Origin: a bacterium | GTDB taxonomy: Bacteria; Methylomirabilota; Methylomirabilia; CAVQYV01 | Assembly: GCA_043800755.1 (NCBI GenBank) | Contig: JAZDMQ010000004.1 | Coordinates: 1 to 15,630, forward strand | Direction of reading: 5' to 3' | Length of the DNA stretch: 15,630 nt | In this document: positions 709-15,285 of the stretch, in pieces | Numbering within the stretch: position 1 is the stretch's first letter | Layout of the letters: each line of letters begins with the position of its first letter | Notes under the pieces: model-generated | Database searches by the model: none | Told to the model about the DNA's origin: nothing | Seen by the model: only the letters and a program-made list of their open reading frames with translations | Made by a program: the position numbers and the translations under genes

Positions 709-731
709 CCCGCGATTTGAGGAGTGAAACG

Positions 732-3335
<2,604 letters not shown>

Positions 3336-3345
3336 GAGGGAACGG

Positions 3346-4560
3346 ATGCGAGGTTGGTGGAAAGAAGAGACGGCCTCCACGAAGGCTATTGTAATCATCG
3401 TGCTTTTGGCCGGCATTGCGATCGGGCTCTTCCTGGCGGCCGACCTGCAGCGCTTCCCCTTCAATCCCTCCTATTCCGCGCCGAAGAGGCCTGTCTCCGC
3501 AGGAGATCTTGCGGGGGTGGGTGGGGCCTTTGTGGAGGTGACCAAGGCCACCAAGCCGGCGGTGGTCAACATCAGCACCACCAAGGTCGTCAGATTCCGG
3601 GGGGCGCCCTACTCCCCCTTCTTTAATGACCCGTTCTTCCGGCGCTTCTTCGGAGATGATTTCTTCCGGGAGTTCAGGGCCCCTCGGGAACAGCGGGAAC
3701 AGAGCCTTGGCTCCGGGGTGATCGTGAGCCAGGACGGCTACATCGTGACCAATAACCATGTGGTGGAAGGGGCGAGCGAGATTCGGGTGCTGGTGGGAGA
3801 TCAGCGGGAATTCAAGGGAAGGGTAGTGGCCACCGATCCCCGGACCGATGTGGCGGTAGTCAAGATCGCCGGACATGGCCTCCCCACCATCCCCTGGGGG
3901 GACTCGGATCGCCTCCAGGTGGGTGAGTGGGTCCTGGCGATCGGCAATCCCTTTGGCCTCAATCAGACGGTCACTGCGGGCATTATCTCGGCGACGGGCA
4001 GGGCCAATGTGGGGATTGCCGACTACGAGGATTTCATTCAGACAGATGCGGCCATCAACCCGGGTAACAGTGGAGGGGCCCTGGTCAATGTGCGGGGAGA
4101 ACTGATCGGCATCAATACCGCCATATTCTCCCGGTCCGGCGGCTATATGGGGATCGGGTTTGCGATTCCCAGCAATATGGTGCGGGAGGTGATGGAGGAC
4201 CTCATCAAGAGAGGAAAGGTGACCCGGGGATGGCTGGGGGTCCACATCCAATCCTTGACGCCGGATTTGGCCAAGAAGTTTGGCTTGAAGAAGGCCCACG
4301 GGGTTCTGGTCGGGGAGGTGAGTGGGGGCAGTCCCGCGGCCAAGGCAGGGATGAAGCGGGGAGATGTCATCCTTGAGTTAGTGGGGAAGAGGGTCGAGGA
4401 CCCGGAACATCTGCGCAACGAGGTCGCCCGCACCGAGCCCGGCAAGCGGATTCCGGTGAAGATCTGGCGAGGCGGCAAGGAGATGATCTTGCAGGTCGAG
4501 ATTGAGGAGCTGCCCAAGGAGGTTGTCATGAGGCCTGCCCCTCAGGGGTCGATCGAATAG
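3346..4560 (+). CDS. HtrA/DegP/DegQ (Do-family) serine endoprotease with an N-terminal hydrophobic anchor or signal and one PDZ domain
   Basis: Catalytic triad motifs TNNHVV, TDVAVV and IQTDAAINPGNSGG; GWLGV...GSPAAKAG.RGDVI PDZ; hydrophobic segment AIVIIVLLAGIAIGLFLAA. The SD GGAGG overlaps the clpB stop codon. Confidence 0.95.
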   Translation: MRGWWKEETASTKAIVIIVLLAGIAIGLFLAADLQRFPFNPSYSAPKRPVSAGDLAGVGGAFVEVTKATKPAVVNISTTKVVRFRGAPYSPFFNDPFFRRFFGDDFFREFRAPREQREQSLGSGVIVSQDGYIVTNNHVVEGASEIRVLVGDQREFKGRVVATDPRTDVAVVKIAGHGLPTIPWGDSDRLQVGEWVLAIGNPFGLNQTVTAGIISATGRANVGIADYEDFIQTDAAINPGNSGGALVNVRGELIGINTAIFSRSGGYMGIGFAIPSNMVREVMEDLIKRGKVTRGWLGVHIQSLTPDLAKKFGLKKAHGVLVGEVSGGSPAAKAGMKRGDVILELVGKRVEDPEHLRNEVARTEPGKRIPVKIWRGGKEMILQVEIEELPKEVVMRPAPQGSIE

Positions 4561-4664
4561 GACATCCTGTGTGATGAGGGTTATATCGGGGGTTTTGGGG
4601 ATTTCCCCTGATTCTGCGGCGGCGGGAGGCGTGGAATGCCACGGGGGAGCGAGGAAGGTCGCCC

Positions 4665-5189
4665 ATGAACGATGCCATCCATAAGCTCTATTTCGAATTG
4701 ATGAAACGCCTGGAGGGGGAGATGGAGGAGGCCTTTGGCAGGCTGTGGCGGCGCTATGTCTGCCTTCCGGTGGTGGCCAATCATGTGGAGATTCCCTCCC
4801 TCAACCTCACCGCCGCCGGTTCACCGCAATACTGGCGCCCGGCCACGGATATCTTGGAGACCGAGGAGGAGTTTATCCTTCGGCTCGAGATTGCAGGCCT
4901 CAGCCAGGATTTGCTGACTATCTCCCAATCCCTCGACGGGAAGAGACTCTGGCTCCGAGGAGAGCGGAGGGATGAGGCTCGATCCAGCCAGGCCCCCCAA
5001 TGGTATCATCAATTGGAGATCTATTTTGGCCCATTTGAACTCTCCATTCTCCTACCGCCGGGGATTGCCCTCGACCTGGATGAGGTCAAGGCCTCTTACC
5101 ACCAGGGAATCCTCTTCTTGAGGATCTCCAAGAAAAGGGGACTGGAGGAGCCAAAGGAGAAGCGGACCTTGTCCATCCCCATCGAATGA
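4665..5189 (+). CDS. Hsp20/alpha-crystallin family small heat-shock protein
   Basis: WRPATDILETEEEFILRLEIAG, LRGERR, EIYFGPFE, VKASYHQGILFLRISK and the C-terminal IXI motif (SIPIE). It lies immediately upstream of lon. Confidence 0.9.
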   Translation: MNDAIHKLYFELMKRLEGEMEEAFGRLWRRYVCLPVVANHVEIPSLNLTAAGSPQYWRPATDILETEEEFILRLEIAGLSQDLLTISQSLDGKRLWLRGERRDEARSSQAPQWYHQLEIYFGPFELSILLPPGIALDLDEVKASYHQGILFLRISKKRGLEEPKEKRTLSIPIE

Positions 5190-5231
5190 AGGAGAGGCGA
5201 GGGGAAGGAGAGGCCGGGTGAAGGGAGAGGC
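5188..5231 (+). repeat. Three purine-rich direct repeats with a 16-nt period
   Basis: GAAGGAGAGGC at 5188 and 5204, and GAAGGGAGAGGC at 5220. Confidence 0.75.
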
Positions 5232-5289
5232 ATATCGCTGGAGATTGTATTTCCAGCTTCCTACGAAACTATTTTGAGGTGATTGGAAA

Positions 5290-7731
5290 ATGAACCCTGA
5301 AGTGAGAGTGATATTGCCCGATCCTGTCGATTCCAGCAACGATAGCCTGGCCATCCCCGAGGAGCTCTCGATCTTGCCCCTGAGGGATATGATGCTCTTT
5401 CCCCATACGGTCCTCCCCCTGGCCGTGGCCAGGGAGGCCTCGGTCCGTCTGGTGGACGAGGCCTTGGGGGGAAACCGCATTATCGGCATCGTAGCCCAGA
5501 GAAATGCCAGCATCGAGGATCCCCAGCCCACCGATCTCTACCCCAATGGGACCGCCTGCATGATCCACAAGATGCTGAAATTCCCGGATGGAAGCCTGCG
5601 GCTGGTGGTGCAGGGGTTGGTGCGGATTCATGTTCGAGAATTCATCCAGCAGAAGCCCTTTTATCGAGCCAAGGTGGAGCAGATCCCGGAGCAGGAACTG
5701 AAGGAAAAACCGATTGAGATCGAGGCCCTCTCCCGCAATGCGATGACGGTCTTTCAGAGGATTGTGAGCCTCTCCCCCCTGCTCTCCGATGAGCTTCAGG
5801 CCTTGGTGATGAACATCTCCGATCCTGGCCGGCTGGCGGATTTCATCGCCTCCAGCCTCCCCTCCCTCTCCACCGAGAATAAGCAGGAGATCCTGGAGTC
5901 TCTGGACATCAAGCTTCGGCTGGAGAAGCTGAACGCGTTCCTGGCCAAGGAGATGGAGGTGCTGGAGCTCGGCTCCAAGATCCAGTCCCAGATCCAATCG
6001 GAGATGGGCAAGAATCAGAAGGAGTATTACCTCCGGGAGCAGATGAAGGCGATCCAAAAGGAATTGGGGGAGTCGGATGAGCGGACCGCCGAGATCGTCG
6101 AGCTCCGCGAGAAGATCGAGGCGGCGGGGATGTCGGAGGAGGCCAAGAAGGAGGCCCTGAGGGAGTTGGACCGGCTCTCCAAGATGCCCCCGGCCGCGGC
6201 CGAATATACCGTCTCCCGCACTTATCTGGACTGGCTTATCTCCTTGCCCTGGTCCAAAGAGGACAAGCAGGAGATCAACATCGCCAAGGCGAAGGAGGTG
6301 CTGGATGCCGACCATTACGACCTGGAGAAGGTGAAGGACCGAGTCTTGGAATACCTGGCAGTGCACAAGATCAAGCCCGATGTCAAGGGTCCGATCCTTT
6401 GCTTCCTTGGTCCTCCCGGCGTGGGCAAGACCTCCCTGGGAAAGTCCATCGCCCGCGCCCTGGGCAGGAAGTTCCTTCGCATCTCTCTGGGAGGGATGCA
6501 CGATGAGGCAGAAATCCGGGGCCATCGCCGCACTTACATCGGGGCCCTGCCGGGTCAGGTCATTCAAAGCCTGAGGAGGGGGGAGTCCAAGAATCCGGTC
6601 TTCATGCTGGATGAGGTCGATAAGTTGGGCTCCGATTTTCGGGGGGATCCGTCCTCGGCTTTGCTGGAGGTCCTGGACCCGGAGCAAAATTTCAGCTTCC
6701 GCGATCACTACCTGGATGTCCCCTTTGACCTTTCTGGAGTGCTGTTCATCGCCACCGCCAATATTGTGGATCCGATCCCGCCGGCCCTGAAGGATCGGAT
6801 GGAGATCCTGGAGCTGGGAGGTTACACGGAGGAGGAAAAGGTGGCCATTGCCGAGCGCCACCTCATCCCCAAACAGGTGCAGGGCCATGGTCTGGTCCTG
6901 GGAGAGACGATTCAGTTCCAGCCGGAGGCGGTGCAAAAGATCATCCGAGAGTATACGCGGGAGGCGGGGCTGCGAAATCTGGAGCGCGAAATTGCCTCCA
7001 TCTGCCGTAAGGTCACCCGCGGGGTCGCCGAGGGAAAGACCGGGCTGGTGACGGTGACCCCGGATGTGGTCATGGAGTTTCTGGGGGCCCCCAAGTTCCT
7101 CTCTGAGGAGATCGAAGAGAGGACCAAGACGCCAGGGGTGGCCATCGGGCTTGCCTGGACCCCGGCCGGCGGGGAGATCCTGTACGTTGAGGCCACCAAG
7201 ATGAAGGGGGAGAAGACCTTGCAACTGACCGGTCAACTGGGGGAGGTGATGAAAGAATCCGCCCAGGCCGCCCTTTCCTGGATCCGGTCCCATGCGACCC
7301 AGCTGGGCATTGATGAGAACTTCTTCCGGGAGTATGACCTTCACCTCCATGTCCCCGAGGGGGCGATCCGCAAGGACGGCCCCTCCGCCGGGGTAACCAT
7401 CGTCACCGCCCTGATCTCTCTGCTTACCGGCCGATCAGTGAAGCCGGGATTGGCCATGACCGGGGAGATTACCTTGAGCGGCCGCGTCCTTCCGGTGGGG
7501 GGGATCAAGGAAAAAGTGCTGGCGGCTCGCAGGATGGGCATCAAGGAGATCATACTTCCTCGGGCGAATAAGAGCAATCTCCTGGAGGATATCCCAGAGC
7601 CGATCAGCAAGGAACTCACCTTTCATCTGGTTTCGACGATTGAAGAGGTCTTGCAGATCTCCCTCTTCGGAGAGGGCAAACCGGAAGAGAGGGCAGACCT
7701 CGCAATGAAGGGAGCCAAGGAGGGTGATTGA
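5290..7731 (+). CDS. lon: ATP-dependent Lon protease (LonA)
   Basis: N-domain LPLRD..LFP; Walker A GPPGVGKT; EIRGHRRTYIGA; Walker B MLDEVDK; KDGPSAG with catalytic Ser699 and Lys742 (GGIKEK) 43 residues later. SD GAGGTGA at 5276-5282. Confidence 0.98.
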   Translation: MNPEVRVILPDPVDSSNDSLAIPEELSILPLRDMMLFPHTVLPLAVAREASVRLVDEALGGNRIIGIVAQRNASIEDPQPTDLYPNGTACMIHKMLKFPDGSLRLVVQGLVRIHVREFIQQKPFYRAKVEQIPEQELKEKPIEIEALSRNAMTVFQRIVSLSPLLSDELQALVMNISDPGRLADFIASSLPSLSTENKQEILESLDIKLRLEKLNAFLAKEMEVLELGSKIQSQIQSEMGKNQKEYYLREQMKAIQKELGESDERTAEIVELREKIEAAGMSEEAKKEALRELDRLSKMPPAAAEYTVSRTYLDWLISLPWSKEDKQEINIAKAKEVLDADHYDLEKVKDRVLEYLAVHKIKPDVKGPILCFLGPPGVGKTSLGKSIARALGRKFLRISLGGMHDEAEIRGHRRTYIGALPGQVIQSLRRGESKNPVFMLDEVDKLGSDFRGDPSSALLEVLDPEQNFSFRDHYLDVPFDLSGVLFIATANIVDPIPPALKDRMEILELGGYTEEEKVAIAERHLIPKQVQGHGLVLGETIQFQPEAVQKIIREYTREAGLRNLEREIASICRKVTRGVAEGKTGLVTVTPDVVMEFLGAPKFLSEEIEERTKTPGVAIGLAWTPAGGEILYVEATKMKGEKTLQLTGQLGEVMKESAQAALSWIRSHATQLGIDENFFREYDLHLHVPEGAIRKDGPSAGVTIVTALISLLTGRSVKPGLAMTGEITLSGRVLPVGGIKEKVLAARRMGIKEIILPRANKSNLLEDIPEPISKELTFHLVSTIEEVLQISLFGEGKPEERADLAMKGAKEGD

Positions 7732-10547: not shown

Positions 10548-11864
10548 ATGTTGGGTTGTGACATCGGGACGCTTTTCAAAGTGACGGTGGCCGGCGGGTC
10601 TTATCAGGAGGGGATGATGGTTCATCTCCAGGGCGTGCCGCCCGGGATGCGGATTACCGAGGAGGAGATCTACAGCGACCTCCTCCTGAGAAAGCCGGGC
10701 CAGGATGAGCTCACTTCCCCCCGGAAAGAGCCGGACATTCCCATCATCTATAGCGGGGTGAACGCCGCGGATACGATGGAGGGGGAGAACAACAAGGGGC
10801 TGACCAACGGGTCTCCCTTCGTCATCCTGATCCCCAATCTGGATCGCCAGGCCATCCACATCGAGCAATACCAGAGGAGCAACCGGTTTCCCCGACCGGG
10901 CCATGCCTCCTATGCCTCATTTCAGAAGTACGGCATGTGCGACGATTCCGTCGGGGCGGGCATCTTCAGTGGGCGCTACACCTGCACCATTGTGGCCGCC
11001 GGGGCCCTGGCGAAGAGGATACTGCGAGAGCATGGGATCGAGGTGACCGCGTACATCAAAGAGGCAGCGGGGATAAAGGCCCGGGAGATGCCCCTGGATG
11101 CCATCCGGGAGAAGGTAGCTGCCTTCCGCAGGGTGCGCAGGGATCATGATCCGGTCTATGCCGCGATCTACGCCAGGGAGCGGATCAGGCCCGAGATGCG
11201 CTTCTTGGAGAAAATGGCCATCCTCTCCCAATTCGAAAAGATCATGGCCGAGAATCAGGTGAAGGTCCTGGACGAGCAACGGGTGAAGGAGGAGCACCAG
11301 ATCCATCCCAAATTGAATTGCCCGGATCTGGAGGCGGCGGAGGAGATGTATCAGAGGATTATCGCCATCAAGGAGCAGGGCGACTCGTCCGGCGGGGTGA
11401 TCGAGGTGCAGGCTACCGGGCTGCCCGCCGGCATGGGGGAGCCGGTATTCCGGAAGCTGGATGGGGAATTGGGCCGGATGCTGTCTATCGCGGCGGTGAA
11501 GGCGGTGGAGATCGGGGCGGGAGTGGGGGTGAAGGATATGACCGGCTCTTTGTGCAATGACGAGATGTTCGCCCAAGGGGGCAAGGTTTCCTTCGGCTCC
11601 AATCATGCCGGAGGTCTGGCCGGCGGCTTGACCACCGGGCAGACCCTGATCGCTCGGGTGACGGTCAAGCCCACTCCCACCATCGGCAAGGATCAGCGCA
11701 CCATCGACAAGGTCAGCCTGGAGAATGTGGTATTGAAGGCAGTGACGCGCCGTGATCCTACGATCGTCCCCCGGGTGTGGCCGGTGGTGGAGGGTTTCCT
11801 GGCGATTATCCTTCTCGATCAGTACCTGCAACACCTGGCCTATCAGACTCTTTGGAGGAGCTGA
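10548..11864 (+). CDS. aroC: Chorismate synthase, divergent long variant
   Basis: PRKEPD, SGV, TNGSP, PRPGHA, VAAGALAK, CPD, GDSSGG, GMGEPVFRKLD, AVKAVEIGAG, SNHAGG..GG, KPTPTI and RDP motifs, directly after aroA. Some canonical motifs are altered (see findings). Confidence 0.88.
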   Translation: MLGCDIGTLFKVTVAGGSYQEGMMVHLQGVPPGMRITEEEIYSDLLLRKPGQDELTSPRKEPDIPIIYSGVNAADTMEGENNKGLTNGSPFVILIPNLDRQAIHIEQYQRSNRFPRPGHASYASFQKYGMCDDSVGAGIFSGRYTCTIVAAGALAKRILREHGIEVTAYIKEAAGIKAREMPLDAIREKVAAFRRVRRDHDPVYAAIYARERIRPEMRFLEKMAILSQFEKIMAENQVKVLDEQRVKEEHQIHPKLNCPDLEAAEEMYQRIIAIKEQGDSSGGVIEVQATGLPAGMGEPVFRKLDGELGRMLSIAAVKAVEIGAGVGVKDMTGSLCNDEMFAQGGKVSFGSNHAGGLAGGLTTGQTLIARVTVKPTPTIGKDQRTIDKVSLENVVLKAVTRRDPTIVPRVWPVVEGFLAIILLDQYLQHLAYQTLWRS

Positions 11865-11899
11865 GGGAATCAGGGCATATCGATTGAATGGAGGACTCG

Positions 11900-12550
11900 A
11901 TGGCAGAGCTCAAATTTAGCGACAATTATAACGACCTGTGCGTCGAATCGGGCGTGAGCGCGGGCTTTCAATTCGAGTTTTACTGCGAGCGTTGCAACGA
12001 TACCTGGCGCACGGAGTTCGTCCCCTATCGGGGCGGTCGGGCGTCGGGTTGGGTAGGAAAGGCGACCGGTTTATTTGGCGGCTTGCTGGGCCAGGCCGGA
12101 GACGCCCTGGAGGGCCTGGCAGAATCGCGCTGGGGCCAGGAGAGAGACCAGGCCTTCAAGGCCGCCGTCGACCAGGCCAAGGATCATTTCCATCGCTGCG
12201 CCCGGTGCTATCAGTATGTCTGTGATATCTGCTGGAATCGGGAGAAGGGACTGTGCCTGAACTGTGCGCCTAGCGCCGAGGTGGAGATTGAGGCGGCCCG
12301 GGCCGAAGGGGAGGTGTACGCGGTCGGTGAAAAGGCGGCCCTGGAGGGCATCCAGCGGGGCAAGAAGATGGATGTCAAGGCCAGCCGCCAGCTGGTCTGC
12401 CCGCAATGTGGTGCAGAGACCAAGGGTGCCAAGTTCTGCCCGGGATGTGGAGCCAAACTGGCGGTGAGCGCCCGCTGCCCAGCCTGTTCTGCCGAGGTCT
12501 CGCCCGGGGCCAAGTTCTGCCCGGAATGCGGGAAGAAGATGGGCCCGTGA
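11900..12550 (+). CDS. Cys-rich zinc-ribbon protein (C-terminal double zinc ribbon), function unknown
   Basis: Eight CxxC pairs: CERC, CARC, CDIC, CLNC, CPQC, CPGC, CPAC, CPEC, with AKFCPxCG repeated twice. The SD GGAGG at 11890-11894 favours ATG 11900 over 11888. Confidence 0.85.
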   Translation: MAELKFSDNYNDLCVESGVSAGFQFEFYCERCNDTWRTEFVPYRGGRASGWVGKATGLFGGLLGQAGDALEGLAESRWGQERDQAFKAAVDQAKDHFHRCARCYQYVCDICWNREKGLCLNCAPSAEVEIEAARAEGEVYAVGEKAALEGIQRGKKMDVKASRQLVCPQCGAETKGAKFCPGCGAKLAVSARCPACSAEVSPGAKFCPECGKKMGP

Positions 12551-12588
12551 TGGGCTTTCTGGTTCAGGGGAAGGGAGGGGTCTGAAGG

Positions 12589-15285
12589 ATGCCGGTAGAT
12601 CTGCAGCGGACCCCATTGAATGCCTGGCACCGTGGGCACGGCGGACAGATGGTGGAGTTTGGCGGATGGGAGATGCCCGTTGCCTATCAAAGGGGGATCG
12701 TCGAAGAGCACCTGAGCACCCGCCGATATGGTGGGCTGTTTGACATTTCCCACATGGGTCGTTTCCTGATCCGGGGAGAGCAGGCCATTCCCTTTTTGCA
12801 GGAGGTCCTGACCAACAACGTACTGGCCTTGGATCCTGGCATGGCCCAATACACCTTGATCCCCAACCAGAGGGGCGGGGCGATTGACGATGCCTATCTT
12901 TACCGCTGGGACCAAGGTGATCGGTCAGGATCGGCAGAGTACCTCCTGGTGGTCAATGCGGCGAATAAGGAGAAAGACTGGGAGTGGTTCCAGGGACATC
13001 AAAAGAGATACCCTCACCTCTCGTTCGAGGATAAGACGGAGGAGATCGCCATGATTGCGCTCCAGGGCCCTTGCAGCAAGGAGTTCCTGGAGAAGATCCT
13101 GCAGGAAAACCACTCCCGCCTTCCCGAGCCGGGGAGGAACCGCTTGAGGGCCTGCCAGGTGGAAGGGTCCTCGGTGATGATCTCGCGCACGGGTTATACT
13201 GGGGAGCCCCTCTGCTTTGAGCTCTTCCTGCCGAGGGAGAAGGTCACGGTCCTCTGGGAGAAGATCCTCTCCCTGGGGGAGGCAGAGGGGATCGTCCCGG
13301 TGGGCCTGGGGGCGCGGGATACGCTGAGGTTGGAGGCCGGCCTTCCCTTGTATGGCCATGAATTGGGATTGGATGCGGAGGGAGAGGAGATCCCCATCTA
13401 TGCCGTTCCCTCCTGCGGGTCAGCGGTGAGCTTTTCTCCGCTGAAGGGGGATTTCATCGGTAGGGAGGCCTTGAGACGCCAATTCGAGGAGGTGAAATCG
13501 AGGGTCCAGGGAGATCTCCAGCCGCCCAAGGAGGAACGGGTCATCCGCAAGAGGATGGTGCCGGTTGCCATCCTGGGCCAGGGCATTGCCAGGCAAGGGT
13601 CTGAGGTCTTCGTGAGAGAAGAAATGGTGGGGTGGGTGACGAGCGGGACCATGATCCCCTATTGGAAATTCCCGGCCCAGGGGCTCCTGTCCAGACCATC
13701 CCCGGAGAGAGGGATGAGAGCGATTGCCCTGGCCTATCTCGATGCGGATTCGAAGAAGGGGCAGAAAATAGAGGTCCGGCAGAGGGGAAGGTCTTTGAAA
13801 GGGGTTATCGTGGAGAGGCACCTCTCCCTGGAGGCCCCGCCCTATGCCCGGCCCCTCCTGGTCAATGAGACTCCTTCAAAAAGACTGGATTCAGGAGGGG
13901 GGTCTGGTTTAGAGGATTCGGCAAGGAAGTTTATGGATCGGGTGATCCAGAATACCCACTGGAGACAGAAAGAGACCATCAACCTCATCCCCTCAGAGCA
14001 GACCCCCTCCGCCCTGGTTAGATCTCTTGCCATGGCCGATCCCTCGGGCCGGTACGCCGAGCACCGCCTGCTCAAGGCCCTGGGGGAAGAGGTCTTCTAT
14101 TATCAGGGGACGAGATTGATCGCGGAGGTGGAGGCGGATCTGGCCAAGGAGCTTCGGGACTTCCTCGGGTGCTCGGAAGTAGAGATACGCCTGATCAGTG
14201 GTCAGATGGCCAACACGACAGCCTTCGGGGGATTGGTGGATTTCCTCAACCACGGAGATCGCAAGAGCGAGCCCCGCCGGATCCGAAAGGTGATGAATCA
14301 TCATCTGGGGAAGGGGGGCCACCTCAGCGCACAGTCGATGGGCGCGCTGAAGGATTTTGTGGCCATTGATCCTTGGACCGACCGGCCGGCGGTCGTCCAT
14401 TTCCCGGTGCGGGAAGAGAATCCCTACCAGATCGACCTGATAAAGGCCGGGGAGCTGATCGAGCGACACCGCCCGGAGTTGATCCTCCTGGGCAAGAGCA
14501 TGATCCTCTACCAGGAGCCGGTAAAGGAGATCGCCCAGATGATCTCCGGGATGAGGCCGAGGCCGATCCTCCTCTATGACATGGCCCATGTGTTGGGTCT
14601 CATCGGCCCCCTCTTTCAAGAGCCCTTCGCGGAAGGAGCTGACCTGGTGACCGGCTCCACCCACAAGACCTTTTTCGGCCCGCAGAGGGGGATCATCGCG
14701 AGCAATATGGGAGAGGAAACGGAATACGCCGATCTCTGGAAGGCCATTACCCGTCGGGCCTTTCCGGGGAGCGTCAGCAATCATCATTTGGGGACGCTCA
14801 TCGGCCTCCTCATGGCGGCCTACGAGATGAATACCTATAAATGGGATTATCAGCGGGCCACCCTCTCCAATGCCCGGGCCTTTGCCTTGGCCCTGAAAGA
14901 GGCGGGATTGAAGGTGGAGGGGGATCCCGGGAGGGGATACACCGAGACCCACCAGGTGATCCTGCGGGTCGGCTATGGAAAAGGGCCGGAGGTGGCGCAG
15001 CGGTTGGAGGAGAACAACATCATCGTCAACTACCAGGCATCGCCAGATGATGAAGGCTTCACTGCGGCCAGCTGCCTGCGGATGGGGGTGCAGGAGATGA
15101 CCCGCTTCGGGATGGGGAAGGAGGACTTCTGCCAATTGGCCGAACTCATGAGCGAGGTGATCCTGCGCGGGGCGAGGGTGGCGCAGGAGGTCTCTCGCTT
15201 CAGAAAGAGATTCACCGAGATGAGATATTGCCTATCTGAGGAGCAGACCGCCTCCTGGATGGCCCAGCTCATGGCAAATGCATAG
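12589..15285 (+). CDS. gcvT-glyA: Fusion protein: glycine-cleavage aminomethyltransferase (GcvT) plus serine hydroxymethyltransferase (GlyA-like)
   Basis: N-terminal ~425 aa: RTPL, MVEFGGWEMPVAY, FDISHMG, GGAIDD, SRTGYTGE, GLGARDTLRLEAGLPLYG, FIGREAL, VTSGT. C-terminal ~455 aa: INLIPSE, RYAE...YYQG, SGQMAN, GGHLS, DMAHVLGL, GSTHKTFFGPQRG (PLP Lys, codon 14665-14667), FPG, LRMG. The frame is uninterrupted. Confidence 0.95.
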   Translation: MPVDLQRTPLNAWHRGHGGQMVEFGGWEMPVAYQRGIVEEHLSTRRYGGLFDISHMGRFLIRGEQAIPFLQEVLTNNVLALDPGMAQYTLIPNQRGGAIDDAYLYRWDQGDRSGSAEYLLVVNAANKEKDWEWFQGHQKRYPHLSFEDKTEEIAMIALQGPCSKEFLEKILQENHSRLPEPGRNRLRACQVEGSSVMISRTGYTGEPLCFELFLPREKVTVLWEKILSLGEAEGIVPVGLGARDTLRLEAGLPLYGHELGLDAEGEEIPIYAVPSCGSAVSFSPLKGDFIGREALRRQFEEVKSRVQGDLQPPKEERVIRKRMVPVAILGQGIARQGSEVFVREEMVGWVTSGTMIPYWKFPAQGLLSRPSPERGMRAIALAYLDADSKKGQKIEVRQRGRSLKGVIVERHLSLEAPPYARPLLVNETPSKRLDSGGGSGLEDSARKFMDRVIQNTHWRQKETINLIPSEQTPSALVRSLAMADPSGRYAEHRLLKALGEEVFYYQGTRLIAEVEADLAKELRDFLGCSEVEIRLISGQMANTTAFGGLVDFLNHGDRKSEPRRIRKVMNHHLGKGGHLSAQSMGALKDFVAIDPWTDRPAVVHFPVREENPYQIDLIKAGELIERHRPELILLGKSMILYQEPVKEIAQMISGMRPRPILLYDMAHVLGLIGPLFQEPFAEGADLVTGSTHKTFFGPQRGIIASNMGEETEYADLWKAITRRAFPGSVSNHHLGTLIGLLMAAYEMNTYKWDYQRATLSNARAFALALKEAGLKVEGDPGRGYTETHQVILRVGYGKGPEVAQRLEENNIIVNYQASPDDEGFTAASCLRMGVQEMTRFGMGKEDFCQLAELMSEVILRGARVAQEVSRFRKRFTEMRYCLSEEQTASWMAQLMANA

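Follow-up and report, generated by a model that had tools for sequence, protein, structure and literature searches.

What does a bacterium do with the aminomethyltransferase of the glycine cleavage system (T-protein, GcvT) and a serine hydroxymethyltransferase (SHMT) on the same polypeptide chain? This question is raised by a contig of a Methylomirabilota bacterium (JAZDMQ010000004.1, 15,630 nucleotides, the whole of which is named here the window), where one uninterrupted frame of the forward strand encodes a T-protein followed by an SHMT-fold module of the type that depends on pyridoxal phosphate (PLP). The window is the entire contig C39 of the host genome (G000), which consists of 2.43 Mb in 166 contigs and is rated 100% complete. 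Our analysis reveals that this fusion of two well-known enzymes is real, ancient, widespread and unstudied. The gene probably encodes a bifunctional T-protein/SHMT of the glycine-serine-one-carbon node, for which we infer both enzyme activities, tetrahydrofolate (THF) as cofactor and a dimeric state.

Continuity and distribution of the fusion gene

A sequence-only reading of the locus had described a complete T-protein and a complete SHMT-like domain in one 898-residue frame, and this architecture is borne out by profile searches: Pfam places GCV_T, GCV_T_C and SHMT domains along the chain, the first half passes a GcvT equivalog model, and the motifs quoted at the time (GGAIDD, TGYTGE, THK, YYQG and LRMG) are all found in the translation. 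The continuity of the frame across the linker was likewise sustained by independent contigs. At least half of the sampled words of the gene are present in 17 public runs, and any part of it in 20 rows from 19 studies. Contigs from four public runs were aligned to the gene. A 3225-nt contig from DNA run X1 spans positions 12400-15032 and a contig from DNA run X2 spans 13771-15034, one of these two runs being possibly the source sample of the assembly, while a 678-nt contig from RNA-library run X12 spans 13558-14212. All three include the linker without any gap, and no insertion or deletion (indel) inside the frame is listed in the aligned contigs of the four runs, with no stop or frameshift at the junction. 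The contigs of RNA libraries X12 and X18, which cover parts of the gene, speak for junction continuity only and not for level or strand, as DNA carry-over is possible. In all four runs, the depth of aligned contigs peaks at window 14992-15099 (37-84 versus about 13 elsewhere), because this stretch, the most conserved one (NIIVNYQ...RMGVQEMTRFG), also attracts numerous contigs from other organisms; the SHMT-type module thus seems to have common relatives in sediments.

The fused form is not restricted to the host. The best 120 clusters at 90% identity are all about 900 residues long and display the same three Pfam domains, with sequences from JGI, ENA, NCBI and Logan, which brings the family to at least 120 clusters. 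A search of 1.84 billion representatives at 50% identity returned 11 full-length fused representatives of 873-961 residues, with identities from 54 down to 37%. Named members originate from metagenome-assembled genomes (MAGs) of Thermodesulfobacteriota or 'Deltaproteobacteria', 'Pseudomonadota' and Spirochaetia, from Tara ocean samples, and from two Candidatus Woesearchaeota archaeon records; their source names are only 'aminomethyltransferase', 'GcvT' or 'hypothetical protein'. In the records of Candidatus Woesearchaeota (DPANN archaea; P0146, P0296 and P0239), both the fused form (945-961 residues) and a stand-alone SHMT-type protein (470 residues) are found, by which the fusion family crosses the divide between bacteria and archaea.

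At the class level, 201 genomes of the host's class were sampled, including the unpublished G130, G039, G030, G066 and G089, all of which lack a fused match. Three of them encode a full-length fused match, i.e. the host, a sister genus (G001, 72% identity) and G109 (57%). G079 and G133 each encode this SHMT type as a separate protein (52% identity), the copy of G121, fused or stand-alone, is cut by a contig end, and the other listed matches are ordinary T-proteins of 370-400 residues (38-46% identity). With three genomes out of 201 and many metagenome clusters, the family is therefore large in metagenomes and patchy across genomes. The suspicion of the sequence-only reading that similar fusions exist in anaerobes proved well founded, since many anaerobe and sediment genomes carry one.

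In two MAG loci, L006 (1169-3821) and L007 (6263-8942), the fusion frame is broken within the T half, near residues 281 and 315, and not at the linker; assembly frameshifts are a more likely cause than biology. These breaks are what could be held in favour of an artefact, either an assembly chimera or an overlooked stop or frameshift between two neighbouring genes, but this explanation is already refuted, and its probability virtually nil, given the indel-free contigs of three runs across the junction, the uniform clusters from four sources, the full-length fused representatives at identities as low as 37%, and the intact full-length frames of G001 and G109.

The T-protein half

Besides the equivalog model (Table 1), the T half also passes PRK00389/NF001567 (312.4 versus a cut-off of 300). 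It exceeds the profile by about 60 residues, with residues 4-410 aligning to positions 2-350 of 359. Its fold in the AlphaFold2 (AF2) model superimposes in Foldseek on the T-proteins 1yx2, 1woo and 1wos with a TMt of 0.87-0.90 at 33-34% identity. Motifs GGAIDD and TGYTGE occupy residues 96-101 and 201-206, respectively. In an alignment of 136 full-length members (A2; the query and 135 relatives), residues D100, D101, N123, Y203, E211 and R243 are invariant. We take the Asp of GGxxDD, the Asn, and the Arg of GARD to be catalytic or folate-site residues of the T-protein, and the catalytic role of D100-D101 is presumed from work on the E. coli enzyme (compare the title 'ETD97N' of an entry in the Foldseek results).

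An SHMT-type module nearest to archaeal enzymes

The description of the second half as SHMT-like holds for its PF00464 match and its catalytic residues, but the module is not an ordinary GlyA: it falls under the NF000586 cut-off, carries Gln at position 816 and belongs to a clade resembling the SHMT of Methanococcus jannaschii. The Pfam SHMT domain extends over residues 449-853 (E 1.2e-31, 110.2 bits versus a cut-off of 27), and motifs YYQG, THK and LRMG are at residues 504-507, 691-693 and 830-833, respectively. The nearest solved relative is the M. jannaschii enzyme (4uqv/4bhd), with an E-value of 1.4e-45 over the whole length, a TMt of 0.88 and 30-31% identity. It is followed by the L-threonine transaldolase 7k34 (E 2.7e-28) and then by bacterial and eukaryotic SHMTs (E 1e-22 and weaker). 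Identity to the canonical GlyA of the host (contig C94) is only 31%. In a quick FastTree analysis of 25 sequences with SH-like support, M. jannaschii SHMT itself being outside the tree, a single clade (support 100) unites the SHMT halves of the fusions with their stand-alone relatives and leaves out the host GlyA. From alignment and tree, the SHMT half is a distinct clade nearest to the archaeal enzyme and not a copy of the host glyA. Stand-alone forms are interleaved with fused ones, such as P0396 and the Chloroflexota MAG protein P0400 (64-65% identity), which suggests repeated gain or loss of the T module.

The active-site residues of the module are strongly conserved. Residues Y489, Y505, S537, D664, H692 and R831 are invariant in the 136 members, of which 134 retain K693, E491, H578 and H667. 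The PLP lysine, the Asp facing the pyridine nitrogen (D664), the stacking His (H578) and the carboxylate Arg (R831) align with the host GlyA; we assume that the roles of the catalytic residues are those described in E. coli and Bacillus SHMTs, R831 presumably corresponding to R363 of the E. coli enzyme. The presumed pterin-site residues E491 and Y504-Y505 are also retained, and a clade signature, FPGxxSNHHLGTL, replaces FPRIQGGPLMHII of the host GlyA. As judged from these residues, PLP chemistry is clearly retained and the pterin site is similar, though not identical, to that of GlyA.

Linker and predicted structure

Mean identity to the query in the alignment of full-length members is 65% for the T half and 70% for the SHMT half, a pattern that speaks for purifying selection on both halves. 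The region comprising residues 423-454 ranges from 28 to 39 residues in length across the family. The single-chain AF2 model has a mean predicted local distance difference test (pLDDT) of 90.2 and a pTM of 0.87, with values below 50 only at residues 111-113 and 427-437. The main low-confidence stretch thereby coincides with the linker, the least conserved part of the family, exactly where the sequence-only reading had placed it (Table 1). No solved chain spanning both halves was found with Foldseek (best TMq 0.42).

Genomic context and one-carbon metabolism

Genomic neighbourhoods tie the T half to the glycine cleavage system. Among 14 fused loci with annotated flanks, gcvH, gcvPA or gcvPB is close to the fusion in seven, or in six of 13 if L037 and L038, which are probably one locus sampled twice, are counted once. 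The gcvH gene is immediately 3' of the fusion in G109 (L026) and near it in L036, gcvPB is found in L007, gcvPA in L041, gcvH-gcvPA in L037, gcvH-gcvPA-gcvPB in L038, and a divergent gcvH-gcvPA-gcvPB-lipoate ligase cluster in L040. As such neighbours accompany fusions and not the stand-alone SHMT types, the T module seems to bring the link with the cleavage system, and the SHMT-type module can act alone.

Two of these neighbourhoods contain additional genes. In L026 (G109:C1:1203000-1222000), four genes at 10742-15875(-) precede the fusion-gcvH pair on the same strand and encode a class I/II aminotransferase, a ComB-like 2-phosphosulfolactate phosphatase, a DAO-family flavoprotein, and a protein combining Pyr_redox_2, BFD-[2Fe-2S] and sarcosine-oxidase-A3 domains; by sequence, the DAO-family and Pyr_redox_2 proteins resemble an amino-acid or opine dehydrogenase pair without a T-like domain of its own. 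In L008 (Syntrophaceae), the region 3' of the fusion (10619-15108) holds two RraA-like aldolase genes, an SDH_alpha-like protein (weak, 36.7 bits) and a class III aminotransferase.

A Pfam search of the host genome returned no GCV_T-family gene other than the fusion. Genes of the cleavage system and of one-carbon (C1) metabolism were sought elsewhere in the genome, where gcvH, the start of gcvPA, fhs and folD were found. The gcvH gene stands alone on contig C134 among unrelated genes, and the first 80 profile positions of gcvPA are at the edge of contig C64, which indicates that the remainder of gcvP lies in an assembly gap. No match to gcvPB was obtained with the L007 gene as query, a result from which absence cannot be inferred since gcvPA runs off the contig edge. 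Together with fhs and folD, acetyl-CoA synthase is present, which provides the host with a THF-based methyl branch of the Wood-Ljungdahl pathway. Mch (PF02289), a marker of tetrahydromethanopterin (H4MPT) metabolism, was not found in the 100%-complete host genome, whereas the control search matched three archaeal genomes. A serine dehydratase of the SDH_alpha type was not found either; the searches did not extend to PLP-type serine dehydratases, glycine reductase or lpd. The reductive glycine pathway as carbon fixation route of the host was considered and is unsupported, acetyl-CoA synthase being present and SDH_alpha not found; its use is an engineering idea and not a finding on this organism. 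Finally, the host encodes an [FeFe]-hydrogenase large subunit adjoined by HydG and a HydE-like radical-SAM gene.

The sister genus G001 is more informative for the SHMT half, as its genome is 100% complete in only 10 contigs. The fusion is there the only GCV_T match, with gcvPA-gcvPB and gcvH present. Neither the Pfam model nor the host GlyA as query retrieved any SHMT-family member of this genome besides the fusion. The GlyA query did return, as positive control, the GlyA of G109 at 65% identity, and an SHMT was detected in all 14 control genomes. Being the sole SHMT homologue of G001 gives indirect but real support to the C-terminal module performing the housekeeping SHMT reaction. The third genome, G109, has canonical gcvT and glyA genes in addition to the fusion.

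Features of the window

The coordinates of the fusion gene and its parts are collected in Table 1. The remaining genes of the window, annotated with Pfam and NCBIfam, are clpB, htrA/degP, hsp20, lon, a family III CoA-transferase gene, aroA, aroC and a zinc-ribbon protein gene. In agreement with the sequence-only reading, neither gcvH nor gcvP is among them; lpd was not searched for. An Rfam scan of the window found no family at the gathering score, hence no glycine riboswitch. The zinc-ribbon gene (11888-12550) was considered as a conserved upstream partner and discarded, as it is seen again only in G001 and has no similarity to the upstream open reading frames (ORFs) of L007 and L008. Four consecutive proteostasis genes at 717-7731(+), namely clpB (717-3335), htrA/degP (3346-4560), hsp20 (4665-5189) and lon (5290-7731), look like a heat-shock cluster. 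The chorismate synthase (10548-11864) has 438 residues versus about 350 for its profile and matches it in two parts (the second from 223-428 to 143-344), and thus seems to harbour an insertion of about 80 residues.

Table 1. Positions of the fusion gene and of its modules, domains and key codons in the window
Feature	Position	Strand	Evidence
Fusion gene	12589..15285	+	898 codons plus stop; contigs of three runs span the junction
Possible Shine-Dalgarno GGAGG	12574..12578	+	10 nt upstream of ATG; sequence reading only
T-protein (aminomethyltransferase) module, residues 1-426	12589..13866	+	TIGR00528 267.6 versus cut-off 235.85 (NCBIfam GcvT equivalog), residues 5-407; Foldseek
Pfam GCV_T folate-binding domain, residues 10-260	12616..13368	+	E 8.9e-76; same place in host-genome search
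D100-D101 codons (GGAIDD)	12886..12891	+	Invariant, 136/136
Pfam GCV_T_C barrel, residues 377-410	13717..13818	+	33.4 bits versus cut-off 25.9
Inter-module linker ETPSKRLDSGGGSGLEDS, residues 427-444	13867..13920	+	pLDDT below 50 at 427-437; 22% mean identity
SHMT-fold PLP module, archaeal-like clade, residues 445-898	13921..15282	+	Pfam SHMT 449-853; nearest solved 4uqv/4bhd
K693 codon, PLP Schiff-base lysine (STHK)	14665..14667	+	K in 134/136; aligns with THK of M. jannaschii SHMT and host GlyA
Q816 codon, clade-specific Gln for canonical GlyA Asn (N-x-N to N-Y-Q)	15034..15036	+	Alignment
R831 codon (LRMG), substrate-carboxylate arginine (presumed)	15079..15081	+	136/136

Discussion

The most probable function of the fusion is that of a bifunctional enzyme, in which each half would perform the reaction of its family. 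Residues 1-426, acting with lipoyl-H-protein, would interconvert aminomethyl-H-protein plus THF and 5,10-methylene-THF plus NH3, and the C-terminal 454 residues would catalyse the PLP-dependent interconversion of serine plus THF and glycine plus methylene-THF. THF is the most likely pterin, since fhs and folD are present in the host and no H4MPT marker was found. With a short variable linker and a predicted fixed packing, two THF/methylene-THF sites would be held on one particle, probably a dimer through the SHMT module by analogy with all SHMTs. A hand-over from site to site would be relevant only for the reaction 2 glycine <-> serine + CO2 + NH3 + 2[H], or for the loading of serine-derived C1 units onto H-protein. 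Both sites would make methylene-THF when serine is fully catabolised to CO2 by way of glycine, and both would use it in full reductive synthesis.

Several observations weigh against this bifunctional reading. First, as both sites share one pool in the fully catabolic and fully reductive directions, channelling is not needed to explain the fusion. Second, the SHMT half departs from canonical enzymes. It scores below the cut-off of the NCBIfam SHMT model NF000586 (236.4 versus 335), yet aligns with it end to end (450-876 to 5-402 of 404). The loop between YAE and YYQG bears an insertion of 6-10 residues in the clade compared with the host GlyA, and the N-R-N of the host GlyA (N-K-N in M. jannaschii SHMT) is N-Y-Q in the clade. 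The second Asn of N-x-N is presumably Asn347 of E. coli SHMT, which we take to contact the pterin; the change to Gln and the loop insertion suggest that folate handling could differ. Third, the host possesses a canonical glyA, which makes the SHMT half unnecessary for its housekeeping. Fourth, no gcv neighbour is present at seven of the 14 fused loci (the window, G001, L008, L035, L039, L043 and L044), and the stand-alone SHMT-type genes (G133, L042 and L051) have no gcv neighbours and stand in unrelated contexts. Fifth, P0125 and P0290 (one 90% cluster, 889 residues) have lost K693 (to His) together with E491T, H578L and H667Q, and retain the full architecture and all T-half residues. This lineage probably carries a dead (pseudo-) SHMT module, as far as its residues tell, so that SHMT chemistry is dispensable in that lineage at least. 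Finally, contact between the halves reached only a weak pass. Folded as separate chains, they gave a median ipSAE of 0.44 (runs 0.44, 0.31 and 0.49) versus 0.00 for the best control, scored as 'weak support'. Of 80 solved complexes, 58 attain this mark, as do two of 110 mismatched pairs, counts that are rough here because a custom alignment was used. Passing scores of 0.60 or under account for only seven of the 80 solved complexes and for both passing mismatches. At least 92% of contacts agree between runs and the partner pLDDT is at least 90, and the idea that the modules adopt a fixed arrangement, rather than that of beads on a string, finds some support in these models. The putative channelling of methylene-THF, as put forward in the sequence-only reading, draws on these models for its evidence.

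A stronger version of the bifunctional reading, which we consider doubtful, is that the folate never leaves the particle. The fusion would then be a self-contained glycine-serine machine passing the C1 unit directly between T and SHMT sites, with THF as a bound catalytic cofactor. The unit could be carried as methylene-THF, with the cofactor either swinging or retained; alternatively, formaldehyde could take an internal path as in dimethylglycine oxidase, where the C1 intermediate reportedly reaches the folate site through a cavity inside the protein, which sets a precedent for C1 transfer within one molecule. If true, such a bound-folate machine would make serine from two glycines, or load the C1 unit of serine onto H-protein, while shielding labile methylene-THF from the bulk. 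The long-standing question of whether methylene-THF is channelled between SHMT and the glycine cleavage system would thereby find an answer in nature.

Among the alternatives, the C-terminal module could be a folate-independent PLP aldolase or transaldolase, for instance acting on threonine or on β-hydroxy-amino acids, that releases glycine for the cleavage system to which the fused T-protein belongs. This would fit with the threonine transaldolase 7k34 as second-best solved relative before the bacterial SHMTs, the failure of the module to reach the NCBIfam SHMT cut-off, the Asn-to-Gln change and remodelled loop at the presumed folate site, the canonical glyA of the host, and stand-alone clade members that adjoin transporters or peptidases rather than C1 genes. 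However, the module reaches only 151.9 bits with the L-threonine/fluorothreonine transaldolase model (TIGR04506) versus a cut-off of 650, which is also under its score with the SHMT model, and the solved relative that comes closest, well ahead of the others, is a true SHMT. Moreover, E491 of YAE and Y505 of YYQG are kept (134 and 136 of 136 members), and in G001, a complete genome, this module is the only SHMT homologue, whereas all 14 controls have an SHMT. On balance, we regard an aldolase function as unlikely.

A specialised job for the fusion, which we judge very unlikely, is the production of aminomethyl-lipoyl-H-protein from serine and ammonium, e.g. for the dithiomethylamine bridge of [FeFe]-hydrogenase. 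In this scheme, the SHMT module would supply methylene-THF to a T-protein running in reverse, with direct passage from module to module. According to the available text of PMC11736057, defined in vitro maturation of [FeFe]-hydrogenase requires SHMT, T-protein, H-protein, serine and NH4+, thus exactly the two predicted activities of the fusion plus H-protein, and the host has such a hydrogenase with HydG and a HydE-like gene next to it. Nevertheless, separate proteins suffice in most organisms with [FeFe]-hydrogenase, hyd genes are absent beside the fusion at every examined locus, and clustered fusions sit with gcvPA and gcvPB, which are superfluous for that route.

Less credible still is an SHMT module with little or no catalysis that mainly provides the T-protein with a structural scaffold or a means of dimerisation. 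The P0125/P0290 lineage, in which an intact architecture has lost four active-site residues, the PLP lysine among them, and the second SHMT of the host are compatible with this view, but the complete active-site set of 134 of the 136 members, an SHMT half conserved at least as well as the T half, and a G001 genome devoid of any other SHMT homologue contradict it.

Compared with GcvT (1yx2, 1woo/1wos, 1v5v and 3a8i), the T half shares the three-domain fold, the equivalog assignment and the invariant Asp-Asp and Arg positions, and the fusion occupies the place of gcvT beside gcvH-gcvPA-gcvPB in several loci. It differs by its 470-residue C-terminal extension, its longer T module and the lack of clustering with gcvH/gcvP in the host. 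The SHMT half has the motifs FPGxxSNHHL and STHKTFFGPQ in common with M. jannaschii SHMT, a stand-alone enzyme that shows N-K-N in place of N-Y-Q. The available text of PMC3697235 describes H4MPT as the pterin used by this archaeal enzyme, unlike a fusion host with fhs and folD and without the H4MPT marker. With canonical GlyA, the SHMT half has in common the fold, the PLP residues and the carboxylate residues. Locus L086 (2660-8254) was considered as a distant fused locus and rejected because its glyA and gcvT are separate genes. It is a canonical unfused operon, glyA-gcvT-gcvH-gcvPA-gcvPB, in which SHMT and the cleavage system are separate co-transcribed genes; glyA precedes gcvT, opposite to the order in the fusion, and its SHMT is canonical, with 552 bits to Pfam SHMT versus 110 for the fusion. 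Finally, dimethylglycine oxidase (1pj5), dimethylglycine dehydrogenase (DMGDH; 4pab and 5l46) and the alpha subunit of sarcosine oxidase (1vrq and 2gag) also join a T-type THF domain to a module that produces C1 units, and their T-like domains match the AF2 model. Their partner is nevertheless a flavoprotein and their T-like domain is not a glycine-cleavage T-protein, whereas the fusion combines a GcvT equivalog with a PLP enzyme that presumably has a folate site of its own.

The sequence-only reading knew of no biochemical study of such proteins, and a full-text literature search, in which subscription journals were largely uncovered and supplements excluded, also returned no report of a natural GcvT-SHMT fusion. 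One document that contains gcvT, glyA and 'fusion' (10.1101/2025.07.15.664484) was discarded, since in its available text 'Fusion' is the name of a mass spectrometer.

To conclude, the fusion offers a natural single-chain test bed for whether SHMT and the glycine cleavage system pass methylene-THF to each other directly, a matter debated for plant mitochondria with no physical complex in hand. Besides, it may provide a ready-made part for synthetic formate or CO2 assimilation schemes that need both activities. As family members are named only 'aminomethyltransferase' or 'GcvT', their predicted SHMT activity is hidden in annotation, and a metabolic reconstruction of G001 keyed on glyA would wrongly call serine-glycine interconversion missing. 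More broadly, our results bring to light a little-known clade of archaeal-like SHMTs in bacteria and DPANN archaea, with a pterin-site signature unlike those of GlyA and of the M. jannaschii enzyme.

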